A stretch of 64,000 bases of DNA from Promethearchaeota archaeon (GTDB lineage: Archaea; Asgardarchaeota; Lokiarchaeia; Sigyniarchaeales; SOKP01), in contig JAHPZJ010000028.1 in the NCBI GenBank assembly GCA_019058245.1, positions 1 through 64,000 of the forward strand. Direction: 5' to 3'. Positions within the stretch are counted from its first letter, which is position 1, and each line of letters starts with the position of its first letter. Below the pieces are notes generated by a model, which was not told the origin of the DNA, made no database searches, and worked only from the letters and a program-made list of their open reading frames with translations. Positions 26,107 through 35,609 of the stretch are shown one piece after another. A program made the position numbers and the translations under genes.

Positions 26107-27556
26107 CAGAAAAGCTCAAGAATACAGTTCCCTTTAGGGAGATGATGAATTGAGTATGAAAAGAAAATCACTAAATTCTTATCCACTTCTCATTTTTAAT
26201 TTACGGTGTATTATCATTAGAAAAATGAAGCTAACACAAAAGATTAGGATATTCCCCTCTGAAAAGCAAGAACTCCTTCTTTGGATCTTATCGGAGAAAT
26301 GCCGCCTCCTATATAATTTTGCGTTAGCGGAACGAATGGAAAATTGGCAAAAGAATAAGGATCTTCCACGAGAAAAACGCCACTATGTTAATTATCTTAT
26401 CCAATCAAGAGCATTACCCGGATTCAAAGAAAAATATCCCGAATATAAATGGGTATATTCAAAGGTTCTCCAAACAATCCTTAAAAAACTCGATGGAAAC
26501 TATAAATCCTTCTTTGCTCTATGGAACAAGGGAGATAAAGATGCAAGACCCCCACGATTTAAAGGGAAGAACTATTTCACCACCCTTTGTTATAATCAAT
26601 CTGGCTTTAAATTACAGGAGAATTCAATCATGTTCTCTCATAAACATCCTTCGAATATCATACTTGAATTTGAACTTCCCTCTCATCTCATTCCTCAAGG
26701 AACTATTAAGCAAGTAGAACTTATTCAGTCTGATAAGAGATGGTATATTTCCCTCACATATGATCTCAAAGTCCCTAAATATTATGATAATCATTCTTAT
26801 CAAGCATTTGATTTAGGAATAAGTCAGACTGTAGGGGTAAACCTTTCTGGAAACTCAGTACAATTCACTCACAGAAGAGCAGACCTCTATTGGAAAAAAA
26901 AGATAAAGGAAGTACATTCAAAACGAGATCATTGTAAAAAATACAGCAATAAATGGTATTGGTATCATTCAAAACTGCTTCGAATGATTAAAAAATGCTC
27001 TTATCAGCTGAAAGATTTCCAGCATTGGCTTTCAAACCAAATTGTATCTCATACTAAAGCGAACACGATTATTGTTGGAGATTTAAAAATAAAACAGATA
27101 GCTCAAAAGAAGAAAGGAACGGGTAATGCTAAAAAGAATAGGATAAGTAACACACTCAACCATTCGGTTCACAACACAGGCTATTTGTCACGATTTACCG
27201 AATTCTTAACCTACAAAGCAGAAAAAAGAGGTAAAAAAGTAATAAGAATTGACGAATCGAAGACTACAAAAGCCTGCTGTAAATGTGGAAAGCTCGAAAA
27301 GAGGGCAATTTTCGAGAGAAGTATTACTTGTGATTGTGGAAATCGTATTGACCGAGATCTCAACTCAGCAATCAATATCATGATACGTTTTTTGTCAGAA
27401 AAACACAAATTCGATTTCTTATCGCACGAATCCTCCGTGAACGAGGAATCATTCCTAAAACAATGGAATGGTTTTCTACGACATACAGACCAACCCGTAC
27501 TAGAAGCGGTTGTGCACTCGTAGGAAGCCACAGCCTTTAGGCTGTGTGTAGTTCAC
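26107..27556 (+). mobile_element. IS200/IS605-family element with tnpB only (IS1341-like, non-autonomous)
   Basis: Left-end hairpin CTCAA...TCCCTTTAGGGA...TTGAG preceded by TTTAT; right end GAAGCCACAGCCTTTAGGCTGTGTGTAGTTCAC ending at 27556; no tnpA; left boundary is approximate. Confidence 0.8.
26225..27523 (+). CDS. tnpB: RNA-guided endonuclease TnpB
   Basis: KIRIFPS...CRLLYNFAL, PPRFK, AFDLG (RuvC-I), IIVGDL / IDES, CCKC...CDC zinc ribbon, DRDLNSAINI (RuvC-III). Confidence 0.92.
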   Translation: MKLTQKIRIFPSEKQELLLWILSEKCRLLYNFALAERMENWQKNKDLPREKRHYVNYLIQSRALPGFKEKYPEYKWVYSKVLQTILKKLDGNYKSFFALWNKGDKDARPPRFKGKNYFTTLCYNQSGFKLQENSIMFSHKHPSNIILEFELPSHLIPQGTIKQVELIQSDKRWYISLTYDLKVPKYYDNHSYQAFDLGISQTVGVNLSGNSVQFTHRRADLYWKKKIKEVHSKRDHCKKYSNKWYWYHSKLLRMIKKCSYQLKDFQHWLSNQIVSHTKANTIIVGDLKIKQIAQKKKGTGNAKKNRISNTLNHSVHNTGYLSRFTEFLTYKAEKRGKKVIRIDESKTTKACCKCGKLEKRAIFERSITCDCGNRIDRDLNSAINIMIRFLSEKHKFDFLSHESSVNEESFLKQWNGFLRHTDQPVLEAVVHS

Positions 27557-29766: not shown

Positions 29767-30467
29767 GATAACGAATCATTTTATTTTATTTTTAAAGTGA
29801 ATTAGATATAAGATTCTAAGCTTTAAAATTCATTTCTCGTTTATTTTTTTTATAGTTTTTTTCCAATAATTAAAGCGATTGAATAATTCTCAAAATGAAT
29901 TTTTTCCCTAAAGCAAATGCTAGTTCATTTTTGGAATAACGTTTATTCTAATTCTTTTATTGTTTTTTAAATATTAATAAAAATTCTTCATATTTAAAAT
30001 TTAGGCTTAACTAATTAAATAAAATAAATATTATAAATAGAGTAATTATTTCATATTAAACGTCCTTTTAATTATCCTTATAAGAATATTTAGATATTAT
30101 TATTTATCTTTCAACTATATATCGATAATAAGAATGGATATTTATTAATTTAGACAATAATTATTTATTCAACATTTTTATCATAATTATTTATAAAAAT
30201 GATATCAATACCTAAATTTAGTTCCTGCTTTTTCAAATATTGCTAATTAATGATTCTAATTCAAAATCACAATAAGAAAATTAAAAAATCTAAACAATTA
30301 TTCTTTTTTTTTTTCTAACTTCTTGATAATTCATATTTTAAGAAAATATTATTTCTAGAGCAATTTCTTTGATTGCTCAATATTATTATGATAATCTTAT
30401 TAAATTCTATTTAATTCAGACTATTAATAAATTTAAATAAATTTAAATTTAATTTGAGGGTGATAGC

Positions 30468-30701
30468 ATGTCAGAATACATTAATATGTTGAAAAAACCA
30501 ATTGAAAATGTACTTGCATTTGTTGGAATAGTGTTTTCTATAGTAGGTTTGGTATCACTATTTTTATCAGCTCCATTTGTAATGTGGATTTCTCTTAATT
30601 ACTGGCCATTGTTTACAAGTGGAAGTATACTTTTATCAATTGGAATTAGTTTATTATATCTAAGGAATAAATTGATCCAATTAAAAATTGAAATTGACTG
30701 A
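30468..30701 (+). CDS. Small 2-TM membrane protein (copy 1)
   Basis: PIENVL...TSGSILLSIG shared with 31788. Confidence 0.7.
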   Translation: MSEYINMLKKPIENVLAFVGIVFSIVGLVSLFLSAPFVMWISLNYWPLFTSGSILLSIGISLLYLRNKLIQLKIEID

Positions 30702-30797
30702 TAAAAATAGTATAACATTAAATATGACAAAAAATAAAACAAAAACAATAAAATAATATAAAAGTTTAATCTTAAAAATATATGAGGAACAATAATA

Positions 30798-31607
30798 ATG
30801 CCATTTTTAGATAATGAGGGTGTTAAAATTTATTATGAAGTTGAAGGAGAAGGTCCACCAGTGATCCTAATTCATGGGATTGCGACAAGCATTGATGGTA
30901 ATTGGAAAGATACTAATTGGGTAAATGTTCTAAAGGATGATTATAAATTAATACTTATGGATTGTCGTGGACATGGGAGAAGTGATAAACCTAAAGATCC
31001 TGCGCAATATGGAGACCATATGATTGATGATATCATTAAATTGCTTGATCATTTATCTATTAAGAAAGCTAATTTTTTCGGTTATTCTATGGGATCGATG
31101 CTAACTATGGAGCTTTTGCTTCGAAATCAAGAACTCTTTATAAGTGCTATTCTTGGAGGATTTGCACTTTCGTTTCCAGGAGAGAAAGAAAGAGCCGCTA
31201 CTAAACAACTGATCGATAATTGGATAGAGGGATTAAAAACAGAAAATATTGAGGATATAAAAAATCCCGCTATTTTGAGATTCCGACAAGTAATTGGGGC
31301 TTATAAAGATTCCCATTTACAAGATTTTGATGCTTTAATTGCCGCTTTAAAGGGTGGTAATCTAGGTCCAGGAGTTTCATCCCTACCAAATGATGAAAAG
31401 AGAGAGGCTGTTAAAAAAATCAAAGTACCAGTTATGGGAGTTTTAGGATCTGAAGACTTAATAATGGGGGATAGAACTTTAATAGCTCAATTAGTACCAG
31501 GTGCTTGTTATTTTCAAATTCAAGGAAAGGATCACATTACTGTAGTCTCTGATCCAAAATTTCACATGGTTGTAAAAGCTTTTCTGGACTATGTAAACAA
31601 AAACTAA
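30798..31607 (+). CDS. Alpha/beta hydrolase (copy 1)
   Basis: GYSMG, GKDH. Confidence 0.9.
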   Translation: MPFLDNEGVKIYYEVEGEGPPVILIHGIATSIDGNWKDTNWVNVLKDDYKLILMDCRGHGRSDKPKDPAQYGDHMIDDIIKLLDHLSIKKANFFGYSMGSMLTMELLLRNQELFISAILGGFALSFPGEKERAATKQLIDNWIEGLKTENIEDIKNPAILRFRQVIGAYKDSHLQDFDALIAALKGGNLGPGVSSLPNDEKREAVKKIKVPVMGVLGSEDLIMGDRTLIAQLVPGACYFQIQGKDHITVVSDPKFHMVVKAFLDYVNKN

Positions 31608-31787
31608 ATGGAGATAAGCCTATATTCCTTACTATTTTTTATTTCTTAATGAGATATTCCTTCTAAAGTATCATTTCCTGCAATTTTTTCTATGTGTACA
31701 TCAATTTTCATAAAACTTTTTAAATTCTCTTTAATTAAATCTTTCCGTAAATTCAAATAAATTTAAATATAATTTAAAGGTGAAATT

Positions 31788-32012
31788 ATGTCAGAAAACG
31801 GTCAAAAAGTGAGAAATCCAATTGAAAATGTCCTTCTATTCTTGGGAGTAGTGTTTTCGGGATTAGGTATTTATACATTGATTATTGGTGTTCTAATGTT
31901 AGGATGGATTCTTGATAGCTGGTTATTTGTGACAAGTGGAAGTATATTTTTATCAATTGGAATGAGTTTATTATATCTAAGTAATAATTTGACCCAATTA
32001 AAGCTTGAATAA
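31788..32012 (+). CDS. Small 2-TM membrane protein (copy 2)
   Basis: Paralog of 30468. Confidence 0.7.
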   Translation: MSENGQKVRNPIENVLLFLGVVFSGLGIYTLIIGVLMLGWILDSWLFVTSGSIFLSIGMSLLYLSNNLTQLKLE

Positions 32013-32113
32013 GAAATTGACGGATGTAAATAGTATAACATTAAATATGAATAAGAATAAAAATAAAAATAACATAAATAATTAATCTCAAAAATCTATG
32101 AGGAACTATAATA

Positions 32114-32923
32114 ATGCCATTTTTTGATAATGAGGGTGTTAAAATTTATTATGAAGTTGAAGGAGAAGGCCCACCAGTGGTCCTGATTCATGGGTTTGCT
32201 GCAAGTTTAGAAGGTAATTGGAAAGGAACAAATTGGGTGAAGGTTCTAAAGGATAAATATAAAGTAATACTTTTGGACTGCCGTGGACATGGCAAAAGTG
32301 ATAAACCCGTGGATCCAAAGCAATATGGCGCACATATGACTGATGATATAATAAAGCTGCTTGATCATTTATCTATCAAGAAAGCTAACTTCTTTGGGTA
32401 TTCTATGGGCTCAAGATTAACCATGGAACTTTTATTAAGCAATCAAGAACTCTTTATAAGTGCTATTCTTGGGGGATATGCACTTCAGTTTCCTGGAGAG
32501 AAAGAAATAGCTGCTGCTGAAAAGAGAAGACGTGATTGGATTGAGGCTTTAACAGCAAAAGATGTGGATAGCCTAAAAAATCCAGAGGCTTTAAGATTTA
32601 TACGTACAATTTCGTTTTATAAAGATTTCAATTTACAAAATTTAGAGGCTTTAGCTGCCGTTTTGAAGACAAGTTTTCAAATTGAGGGAGATTTAGCCAA
32701 AATTAATGCTGAAAGAAAAGAAACTCTTAAAAAAGTCAATGTACCAGTTATGACTGTTGTAGGATCTGATGATTTCATTCCTGGGGATAAAACTTTAGTA
32801 GCTCAAATAGTTCCAGATGCTTGTCACTTTCAAATTCAAGGAAAAGACCATATAAATGTTGTCCCTGATCCCAAATTTCATATGGTAGTAAAAGCCTTTC
32901 TGGATTATGTAAACAAGAATTAG
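32114..32923 (+). CDS. Alpha/beta hydrolase (copy 2)
   Basis: GYSMG, GKDH. Confidence 0.9.
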   Translation: MPFFDNEGVKIYYEVEGEGPPVVLIHGFAASLEGNWKGTNWVKVLKDKYKVILLDCRGHGKSDKPVDPKQYGAHMTDDIIKLLDHLSIKKANFFGYSMGSRLTMELLLSNQELFISAILGGYALQFPGEKEIAAAEKRRRDWIEALTAKDVDSLKNPEALRFIRTISFYKDFNLQNLEALAAVLKTSFQIEGDLAKINAERKETLKKVNVPVMTVVGSDDFIPGDKTLVAQIVPDACHFQIQGKDHINVVPDPKFHMVVKAFLDYVNKN

Positions 32924-32973: not shown

Positions 32974-33291
32974 ATGGCAAGTTCCGAAAAATTAGAGCAT
33001 ATTATAAAAAAAGAGATTTATAAGTTACGTAATTTAGGAGAGTATAGCCGAAAAGGAAGTGATCATCTTTCTTATAGATCAATAATCAAGTTTGAATTAG
33101 GTGAGCCAAAAGAATTAATCTTCCAAGACCAAATTGTTTTTGAAGTAATTTGTAAATATAATATTTATACTGAAACGGAATTCTTGCATCCTCCAGAAAT
33201 GGACGAGTTTTATACTGAGCATTATCATGATAAATTTATTTTTGATAAGGATTTTAAAGTTATAAAAATTGAAGATATGCGTAGTGGGTAA
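32974..33291 (+). CDS. Hypothetical protein
   Basis: Clean 105-aa ORF, no recognised motif. Confidence 0.55.
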   Translation: MASSEKLEHIIKKEIYKLRNLGEYSRKGSDHLSYRSIIKFELGEPKELIFQDQIVFEVICKYNIYTETEFLHPPEMDEFYTEHYHDKFIFDKDFKVIKIEDMRSG

Positions 33292-33590
33292 TAATCTAAG
33301 TTCTTTAATCCATATCTGTTTATACTAAGTATTTTCTTAAATTAAATTATAGAATGTATATGATAAATCAATTTCAGTTTATTTTATTTTTCCTAAATTA
33401 ATTCATTGCCTATATACATAAGAAAGTTATAACATAATCAATATGAGAATGTGATTTAATATAGAATATAATTAAGTTAATAAGCTCGGAATAAAACAAA
33501 TTAGAAATATTTATATATAAATCAATCAATAGTTAACAAAAATTATTTAATTCAATAAATTTACTAAACATTGAGGAGACGAATTAAAAA

Positions 33591-33677
33591 ATGGCAAAGA
33601 AGAAAGCTCCTGCTAAAAAAAAAGCTCCAGCTAAAAAGAAAGCCCCTGCTAAAAAGAAGGCACCTGCTAAAAAATAA
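33591..33677 (+). CDS. 28-aa Lys/Ala/Pro-rich microprotein MA(KKKAPA)4KK, histone H1 tail-like
   Basis: ATG...TAA with GAGGAG upstream, TATA-like element near 33510, T-tract downstream; the 18-nt repeats differ only at synonymous positions. Confidence 0.8.
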   Translation: MAKKKAPAKKKAPAKKKAPAKKKAPAKK

Positions 33678-33769
33678 AGTTAAAAAGCTATATTTCAATT
33701 TTTTTCTAATTTTTGTTTTTTTTAATTTGATAAAACAGTTATAATAATTCAATTTTTTAATTATTTTTA

Positions 33770-34294
33770 TTATAGTAAAAATCTCTTGTCTAATTCAGTT
33801 CCACAATTTGGGCAATATTTTTTGTTCTGATTTAATTTATCGATTTTTATATTTTTAGTCAACTCTTTTTCTAGTTTTGAATATATATCTTTTAGCATAA
33901 TATCTTCGATTGAAATTAGATTGAGTTTCCCTTTTTTATATAATTTAAGTTTTTCTTCTTTTCTATTCATATAATCTTTTCCAAAATATCCCCAATATTC
34001 TATATAAATCTCATGTTCTGGTAAATACCAATCATACTTGAGAAAATTACCATTTATTTTGATTGTTTTCTCATATTCATGTTCAAGACCAAGACGATAA
34101 AGGTGATTATCTATAATTAATTCCCCTCTTGATTTTACAATATGACCATCAAGACATTTAAAACTAGTTGCTACTTGTGGAAGATATTTCTCTCTAAATA
34201 TTTTTTTTATTTTTAAAATAAACCAAGCGATTATTATAAAACATACAAGAAAAATTACACCACCTAAAATAAAATAGGTTAAAATTAGACTCAA
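33770..34294 (-). CDS. Membrane-anchored restriction-endonuclease-like (PD-(D/E)xK-type) domain with C-terminal zinc ribbon
   Basis: N-terminal TM; GHIVKSRGELIIDNHL...YDWYL...YIEYWG; CPNCG. Confidence 0.6.
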   Translation of the reverse strand: MSLILTYFILGGVIFLVCFIIIAWFILKIKKIFREKYLPQVATSFKCLDGHIVKSRGELIIDNHLYRLGLEHEYEKTIKINGNFLKYDWYLPEHEIYIEYWGYFGKDYMNRKEEKLKLYKKGKLNLISIEDIMLKDIYSKLEKELTKNIKIDKLNQNKKYCPNCGTELDKRFLL

Positions 34295-35219: not shown

Positions 35220-35609
35220 ATGATAAAATCGATATTAATTTGTGATTCTGTTGGGTATCCATTCTATTCTCGAAATTTAAATTCAAAATTTGGTCAAATT
35301 GATCCCACTATTTTTAGTGGTTTGATTTCAGCGATTGGTGCGATAGGTAAGGAATTATTCAGAGAAGATATAGCTACAATTGAATATGGCGACAATTATG
35401 AAATAACTATAATTACAAAAGAGTTGTTCGGAAATCATAATAAAGTAATTTATTTTGTCTATATATTTGAAGGGAATAAAGATCTTAAATTAATGAAGAA
35501 TTTAAGTACAAATATTTTTATTGAAACAAAACAAGTTTTAAAGGATAATAGCATTACCAAGTTGAATATTAAAGAAAAAGTAGATAGAATAATAGACAAT
35601 TTATTATAA
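35220..35609 (+). CDS. Stand-alone longin-like domain protein
   Basis: ILICDSVGYPFYSR...DPTIFSGLISAIGAIGKELF pattern typical of Asgard longins. Confidence 0.65.
   Translation: MIKSILICDSVGYPFYSRNLNSKFGQIDPTIFSGLISAIGAIGKELFREDIATIEYGDNYEITIITKELFGNHNKVIYFVYIFEGNKDLKLMKNLSTNIFIETKQVLKDNSITKLNIKEKVDRIIDNLL

Follow-up and report, generated by a model that had tools for sequence, protein, structure and literature searches.

RESULTS

A Lys/Ala/Pro-rich microgene and its expression signals

The window, by which we mean the whole stretch of 64,000 nt of DNA that was analyzed, carries at 33591-33677 on the forward strand a small open reading frame for a stand-alone 28-aa peptide of the composition (KKKAPA)x4, reading as had been claimed in a first-pass annotation. 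The peptide has 14 Lys and neither acidic nor aromatic residues, with a net charge of about +14, a mass of about 2.8 kDa minus Met and a pI of about 11.1. Its reading frame holds four 18-nt units, and all five columns that vary between these units are third codon positions; the first-pass annotation, which had stated that the repeats differ solely at such positions, was also correct in the Ala-Pro-Ala codons that it quoted. The TATA-like element, the GAGGAG motif and the T-rich terminator that it described could all be located, these elements being conserved in orthologs. The features of the locus are the following.

32974..33291, + strand: upstream neighbor, 105 aa, without Pfam or NCBIfam match, 299 nt off
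33503..33509, + strand: BRE-like purine-rich AGAAATA directly 5' of the TATA box (from sequence and ortholog conservation)
33510..33517, + strand: archaeal TATA box TTTATATA, 81 nt before the ATG (from sequence and ortholog conservation)
33535..33590, + strand: AT-rich 5' leader of about 55 nt, as estimated from the TATA spacing
33573..33578, + strand: Shine-Dalgarno (SD) motif GAGGAG (from sequence)
33591..33677, + strand: microprotein coding sequence, 28 aa, (KKKAPA)x4 (from ORF reading)
33699..33723, + strand: oligo-T tracts at 33699-33705 and 33710-33723, likely an archaeal terminator
33564..33752, - strand: antisense shadow ORF, 62 aa, a non-gene in whose frame the wobble sites are non-synonymous
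33770..34294, - strand: convergent downstream neighbor, 174 aa, its C-terminus weakly matching a zinc ribbon

The layout of the 5' leader matches that of the histone genes of the same genome, and a sigma-70/hairpin scan was set aside, archaeal signals being outside its model. Neither of the two flanking genes (32974..33291 and 33770..34294) is kept as a neighbor across the microgene loci. As noted in the first-pass annotation, the ORF list is blind to the microgene, and at its 60-aa cut-off it gives the antisense ORF 33564-33752 alone at this site; a second open antisense frame over the microgene is without a conserved start. The identical region was present on four independent Logan contigs, where the gene caller had likewise left the microgene uncalled. 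With a K/A/P content of 96% it was the sole ORF exceeding 57% among 28,389 short ATG ORFs of the genome, and the chance expectation for 27 consecutive K/A/P codons genome-wide is about 2e-20, whereby a chance origin of this ORF could be excluded.

Elsewhere in the window we observed a tandem duplication at 30393-32923, having a period of about 1,316 nt and comprising genes for a 74-77-aa two-helix membrane protein and an alpha/beta hydrolase, as well as a 457-aa ORF at 26150-27523 with, by eye, an IS200/IS605 TnpB-like look.

Signatures of a selected protein-coding gene

Comparing 13 gap-free orthologs of 37 codons, we found a pS of 0.52 and a pN of 0.044, giving a pN/pS of about 0.085 (uncorrected, and with pairs that are non-independent), and the variable positions were 29/36 at third, 4/36 at first and 8/36 at second codon positions. 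This concentration of variation at the wobble position bears out the earlier suggestion that selection acts on the peptide. The expression signals were also conserved in orthologs. Most orthologs have a TATA box at -79 to -81, with BRE and TATA together in the equivalent range of positions for 29 of 46 orthologs, compared with 0.8% of the long genes of the genome. A Shine-Dalgarno motif of the GGAG/GAGG/AGGG/GGGA type was seen in 41 of 44 orthologs (GGAG/GAGG occurring in about 13% of long genes), and a tract of at least seven T at most 62 nt past the stop in 43 of 44, compared with 20% of long genes. The microgene was always a single-gene unit, its nearest neighbors being at least 79 nt distant. 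The share of AAA-AAA-AAA among KKK triplets was 12% in the microgenes, 33% genome-wide and 3% in histone tails. Ribosomes slide on A-runs (PMC4363877), and the avoidance of this triplet fits selection against such sliding, with replication slippage as a possible alternative.

The region might instead be a tandem DNA repeat, a non-coding RNA or the relic of a histone gene, which would agree with its 18-nt periodicity, with the failure of gene finders ever to call it and with seven orthologs that end early with relic repeat codons after the stop. We nonetheless find such an origin very improbable, considering the wobble-confined variation with its low pN/pS, the conservation of ATG, Shine-Dalgarno motif, TATA box and stop in 46 genomes, the absence of any histone-fold remnant downstream of the stop and the lack of a credible match in Rfam. 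As judged from these sequence comparisons, ORF 33591-33677 is a real, selected and unannotated member of an Asgard microprotein family.

Neither Pfam, NCBIfam and PDB nor Rfam gave any credible match to the microprotein or its locus, and phmmer searches with the microprotein retrieved long low-complexity proteins only. None of eight archaeal copies was present in a collection of 15 billion proteins, although the histone of the same contig is; this collection may omit very short proteins, and the absence of both the basic peptides and the acidic peptides described below marks a blind spot of it. In the ESM Atlas there were clusters, unnamed and 30-38 aa in length, which resembled the microprotein in their features and for which no taxa were recorded; going by these, similar peptides do exist in small-protein sets.

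Range and genomic context

An HMM search of 400 genomes missed even the copy of the window and was replaced by codon patterns, with which stand-alone orthologs of 27-37 aa were found in 46 of the 135 genomes of the window's Promethearchaeia (Loki) family. This was distributed as 29/54 genomes in the window's own genus (one copy being cut by a contig end), 16/42 in a second genus and 1/10 in a third, all of which are lower bounds as the codon patterns miss variant starts. The search of relatives for short K/A/P ORFs that the first-pass annotation had suggested thus revealed conservation within the family. Twelve metagenome contigs carry further copies. The range is patchy, with non-carriers including genomes of 97-100% completeness, and some near-complete genomes of the window's genus are without the microgene at its usual neighbor. 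One copy (in G184) was identical to that of another genome (G229) and was left out as a likely result of faulty binning, and records labeled Odin-, Thor- and Hermodarchaeota proved to be the same contigs as those of window-family genomes, by which the range was not extended.

The sister family, which includes Ca. Lokiarchaeum ossiferum B35 (G171), Promethearchaeum syntrophicum (G038) and Ca. Harpocratesius repetitus (G032), had the microgene in 0/14 genomes using the codon patterns, all matches there lying in the tails of histones or of large proteins; neither B35 nor MK-D1 yielded a copy. In the class to which a Hodarchaeales-like family belongs, the 83 genomes gave one doubtful 22-aa ORF, and viral contigs gave zero matches with one pattern. 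The doubtful case (L459:1501-1569, + strand) is a Lys/Thr/Ala ORF with a Shine-Dalgarno motif in one Hodarchaeales-like genome, absent from relatives by the same pattern.

The neighbors of the microgene, including nitroreductases, an Fe-S flavodoxin, an alkylsulfatase-like protein and MgsA, are shuffled and never operonic, for which reason a role in redox chemistry or as an electrophile sink was set aside. Flanking repeats, such as would mark a mobile cassette, were not seen at the microgene. The commonest neighbor, seen at 17 of 52 loci, is a 129-aa protein (35220-35609 in the window) without Pfam or NCBIfam match; in relatives, proteins of 1,400-1,600 aa have N-termini that give weak matches to it. 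Two loci (L011:728-1144 and L318:950-1315) have ORFs of 121-138 aa that consist largely of alternating Lys/Asp repeats and lie close to the microgene or where it is usually situated.

Features conserved in the peptide

Across 44 orthologs the composition was K 50%, A 28%, P 17%, G 2.5% and R 0.2%, with Ser and Thr at 0.6% each. Lys occurs in runs of 2-3 (283 of 292 runs) separated by spacers of 2-3 residues (239 of 245), the spacer residues being small and Pro recurring at every fifth or sixth position. The total charge lies in most cases between +14 and +19, and the length is loose at 27-37 aa. Because the pattern of Lys runs, spacers and Pro is kept while the length is loose, charge pattern and stiffness are what is selected, and not a folded surface, and the ortholog comparison thus shows that selection keeps charge patterning and not the exact sequence.

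These properties also bear upon the possibility that the microprotein is an RNA- or ribosome-associated peptide, acting as an accessory or hibernation factor that neutralizes rRNA. In size and charge it resembles eL41, bS22 or bTHX, and the globular-domain-less TgH1-like protein co-purifies with ribosomal proteins (PMC9769792). An Arg content of 0.2% and a Pro every 5-6 residues, which precludes an Arg-rich helix, argue against this explanation, as do the patchy presence and variable length of the family, the absence of a PDB match and the fact that ribosomal genes are never nearby, and we therefore consider it rather unlikely.

Likeness to the tail of a core histone

The genome of the window encodes a tailed core histone of 81 aa (G000:C28:252652, PF00808/NF043032), the first nine residues of which are identical to those of the microprotein. 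In a six-frame search of the genome (5.7 million residues), we found the N-terminal tail of this histone to be the sole other sequence having several of the common 6-mers of the family, and histone tails across the window's family are built of the same units as the microprotein. The histone fold itself (PF00808, NF043032) is absent from the microprotein; all complete orthologs have a stop after the repeats, and the fold is found only in the separate 81-aa histone. Descent of the microgene from a histone gene is plausible, judging by these similarities. A search for promoter homology between the microgene and the histone genes did not establish any, and co-variation between peptide and tail was seen in one clade of one genus, as an APAK-to-PAPK shift, with none in the window's genus (p 0.8-0.9). 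The likeness may also be convergent, because K/A/P tails are found on RNA polymerase subunits, Alba, MoxR ATPases and bacterial HU. That the peptide would substitute for a shortened histone tail was rejected, as the tails of carriers are no shorter (p 0.38 in the window's genus, and longer in the second genus). In several assemblies (L085, L092, L442 and G214:C38) the tailed histone gene is broken by a stop or an insertion.

In B35, the histone HLoB yields a monomethylated tail peptide, AKKKTPAKK, and GNAT and sirtuin (SIR2) enzymes acetylate and deacetylate the histone tail in vitro, with reader domains not being found (10.64898/2026.07.02.735847). That tail peptide differs from the microprotein by one residue, and the genome of the window has several SIR2 matches. 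A conceivable role of the microprotein would thus be that of a decoy for the histone tail, competing for or buffering the writers and erasers of tail marks as a methyl or acyl sink in preference to binding DNA. The nine identical N-terminal residues, the modified homologous site in B35, the GNAT and SIR2 enzymes that act on the tail there and the matching APAK-to-PAPK shift in one clade would all agree with this role. We still hold it to be improbable, since co-variation is lacking in the window's genus, since three Thorarchaeia histones are without a K/A/P tail in a lineage that has a similar peptide, and since the preprint reports B35 to be without reader domains.

The same motif was encountered in several other settings. 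The RNA polymerase A' subunit (Rpb1 domains) has in some genera a C-terminal (KKAPA)n tail of variable length (L228:46-1728, L224, L225, L229, L230, L232), preceding a conserved end segment, with a non-repetitive basic linker in the window's copy. Alba of another Asgard family has histone-tail-like N-terminal K/A/P repeat tails (L216-L218), three MoxR-type AAA ATPases start with the same Lys/Ala/Pro motif (L053, L062, L083), and HU of marine gammaproteobacteria has the same K/A/P N-tail (L099, L109). Free-standing bacterial K/A/P ORFs include one of 28 aa with a strong Shine-Dalgarno motif in a Dormiibacterota MAG of 71% GC (L137:1593-1679, - strand) and longer ones of 77 aa in Halieaceae (L100) and 118 aa in Gemmatimonadetes (L124). 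Such repeats are thought to originate repeatedly (PMC3553676).

Acidic Asp/Glu-Trp microproteins

In Thorarchaeia, 18 of 87 genomes were found, using a wider pattern, to have basic ORFs of 20-25 aa, with one more found in addition, these belonging to two genera and being of the Lys/Ala/Pro/Thr type (K 54%, A 21%, P 10%). The basic ORF lies 64-104 nt behind an ORF for a 25-32-aa Asp/Glu-Trp peptide and is followed by a hairpin and a T-tract, an acidic-then-basic order seen in 19/19 Thorarchaeia loci with the basic ORF (L463-L481, for instance L467:1349-1563:+). Those of the pair peptides that were checked were not in the collection of 15 billion proteins, and the three Thorarchaeia histones examined had no K/A/P tail. 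The basic peptides of Loki and Thorarchaeia are too simple in sequence for their homology to be demonstrated.

The genome of the window has two acidic-Trp microgenes, both unlinked to the basic microgene and with the same promoter layout:

G000:C24:14876-14989 (L501:1877-1990): acidic-Trp microgene, 37 aa
G000:C13:382214-382309 (L502:2015-2110): acidic-Trp microgene, 31 aa

Relatives carry versions of 31-66 aa, this family being present in about 29 of the 54 genomes of the window's genus. The acidic peptides had no Pfam match, the DSS1_SEM1 and prothymosin models being unmatched, and they may be termed DSS1/Sem1-like or prothymosin-like by chemistry only. Most, not all, of the acidic pattern matches were confirmed as stand-alone ORFs. 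Within the window's genus they occurred in 23/29 carriers of the basic peptide vs 6/25 non-carriers (Fisher p 9e-5), or 18/23 vs 4/15 at a completeness of at least 92% (Fisher p 0.003), both counts being drawn from kin that are non-independent; a tree-based test had only 3-6 independent pairs, with which it was non-significant and cannot reach significance. None of the basic-peptide loci of the window's family contained an acidic ORF.

These data raise the possibility that the acidic Asp/Glu-Trp microprotein is the real partner and that the two act away from DNA, either with the basic peptide neutralizing or storing a DSS1/Sem1-like or WASP-A-like acidic peptide or with both forming a charge-balanced condensate. 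The two-gene unit of Thorarchaeia with its shared hairpin/T terminator, the common promoter layout of the 31-66-aa acidic peptides across the window's family, the co-occurrence and the lack of both peptides (by these patterns) in two relatives that are in culture and one further complete genome all speak for such a pair. As the genes are unlinked in the window's family, as the co-occurring genomes are kin, as the DSS1_SEM1 and prothymosin models are unmatched and as nucleic acid is the largest polyanion pool of the cell, we judge a pair acting away from DNA to be unlikely.

Two further kinds of mixed-charge proteins were noticed. A stand-alone 67-aa ORF of the window's genome (G000:C13:448730, - strand) has a Lys-rich start, a long Asp/Glu tract (61% acidic) and its own Shine-Dalgarno motif. 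In a family of 96-113 aa (L084, L151, L168, L185), the N-terminus is basic, the middle part is long and acidic and the C-terminus has four conserved Cys, with no Pfam match for the L084 member.

DISCUSSION

Proposed function of the microprotein

The microgene is a single-gene unit with histone-gene-like signals, encoding runs of 2-3 Lys with 2-3 small spacer residues and Pro every 5-6 positions. Archaeal nucleoid proteins are as a rule encoded in single-gene operons (PMC7613761), and the microgene has the small size, basic nature and single-gene arrangement that are used as criteria for nucleoid-associated proteins (PMC7613761). The earlier suggestion that the peptide could be a chromatin component agrees with this profile, whereas the chromatin function itself is something that we infer. 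By analogy, the microprotein may be a small disordered nucleoid polycation, or 'free tail', possibly handled by acidic peptides as H1 is handled by prothymosin, a reading that we consider about evenly poised between being right and being wrong. It would probably bind DNA and either loosen or bundle it. In terms of chemistry, any polyanion, including RNA, ribosomes or acidic proteins, fits the microprotein equally well.

As a free tail, the microprotein would be abundantly made, of which the Shine-Dalgarno motif, the TATA box and the avoidance of A-runs are no more than indirect signs, and would remain an extended disordered chain. Judging by the behavior of MDP1, Ku, AlgP and H1 tails of the PAKK/KPAA type, it would bind DNA phosphates non-specifically and screen their charge, and might likewise weakly bridge neighboring duplexes or histone-wrapped DNA. 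PAKK-rich tails cross-link DNA by electrostatics alone, and with the tail of MDP1 at 38 residues the in-vitro compaction is almost lost, although a tail of that length, as a fusion to HU, still compacts chromosomes in vivo (PMC10810275). Because 38 residues are marginal in vitro (PMC10810275), single molecules are unlikely to compact DNA strongly in the manner of H1, and at 28-37 aa, which is at or below the length for strong compaction, the peptide would rather be a weak and reversible modulator working in numbers. Since it copies the motif of the tailed histone, the enzymes methylating or acetylating that tail may also modify the microprotein, thereby tuning its charge. More speculatively, the Asp/Glu-Trp microproteins could compete with DNA for it and so release it, in the way that prothymosin alpha displaces H1.

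The KPAA-repeat tail of AlgP positions polyphosphate granules (PMC9239181), which suggests an AlgP-like organizer of such granules as another function. Neither PPK1 (PF02503) nor PPK2 (PF03976) was found in the five genomes searched, including that of the window and three 100%-complete carriers, and we find this function hardly credible.

Extending the free-tail reading to both peptides, Asgard archaea could have a two-peptide chromatin module in which a polycation like a histone tail or H1 tail, with shared modification sites, is removed from DNA by a prothymosin-like polyanion. This analogy we regard as tentative and, on the whole, doubtful. If true, it would give a prokaryotic counterpart of the disordered H1-prothymosin switch, and the module would have been overlooked because both genes are below gene-calling limits.

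Relation to linker histones and wider implications

The likeness to the C-terminal tail of H1 put forward in the first-pass annotation holds for the chemistry, whereas in sequence the peptide comes closest to the N-terminal tail of the core histone that the organism itself encodes. Its further suggestion, of a relation to the origins of linker histones, finds no support, as the peptide has no winged helix and no Pfam or NCBIfam match, has a patchy range, was not found in cultured Lokis and has a motif that recurs in bacteria. A Lys/Ala/Pro-rich disordered basic region of the H1 type is present, with the composition given above; the winged-helix globular domain of H1 is absent from these 27-37-aa chains of K/A/P/G only, and phosphorylation motifs of the S/T-P-x-K type are not seen in the 44 orthologs, in which Ser and Thr are so rare. 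The chlamydial Hc2 model PF07382 gave no match, Hc2 being a weak feature-level Atlas neighbor only. The microprotein is thus probably not an ancestor of H1. Linker-histone homologues had not been found in archaea as of a 2018 review (PMC6136690), and the tails of Asgard histones have been treated as probably convergent (PMC10919886; 10.1101/2021.11.30.470311).

In the literature, our coverage of which was incomplete, we did not find a free tail-like microprotein described for archaea. Surveys of Asgard chromatin could not have seen it, because a peptide with Lys only and no Arg would be cut to pieces by trypsin, and tail peptides assigned to histones in carrier organisms could derive from the microgene instead. 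A selected gene for a tail only shows that the chemistry of such tails is useful on its own, apart from a fold, and peptides of about 30 residues offer a cheap and fully synthetic test system for tails acting in trans on archaeal chromatin.

Comparison with known systems

The small ribosomal proteins eL41, bS22 and bTHX are, like the microprotein, highly basic chains of 25-37 residues that are often missed by annotation. These proteins are Arg-rich, whereas the microprotein is of a Lys/Pro type, patchy and variable in length, with no family or PDB match and no ribosomal context. With the globular-domain-less H1-like proteins, as in kinetoplastid H1, TgH1-like and Hc2 (PF07382), it has in common a free-standing and unfolded Lys/Ala/Pro chain, being about a third as long as the 91-aa TgH1-like protein of Toxoplasma and having an archaeal host.

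The chemistry is also that of the tails of mycobacterial MDP1/HupB and Ku and of Pseudomonas AlgP and of the C-terminal domain of H1, which bind and cross-link DNA electrostatically. Each of these tails is attached to a folded domain, and in MDP1 and AlgP they are 100-150 residues long, whereas the microprotein is at or below the length that compacts DNA in vitro in MDP1 truncations. HLoB of Ca. Lokiarchaeum ossiferum B35 shares the N-terminal start, the repeat units, the single-gene layout, the long leader and the Shine-Dalgarno motif; the microprotein differs from it in having no histone fold, in presenting the tail unit four to six times in free-standing form and in having a promoter that is not recognizably homologous.

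H1 and prothymosin alpha, finally, are a disordered polycation and polyanion, with prothymosin alpha competing H1 off DNA (10.1101/2020.04.17.046243). The Asgard peptides, as a putative pair, are several-fold shorter, have no winged helix or sequence match to that pair and are unlinked in the Loki family; what they share with it is the presence of a disordered polycation and a disordered polyanion in one cell, encoded by adjacent genes in Thorarchaeia.
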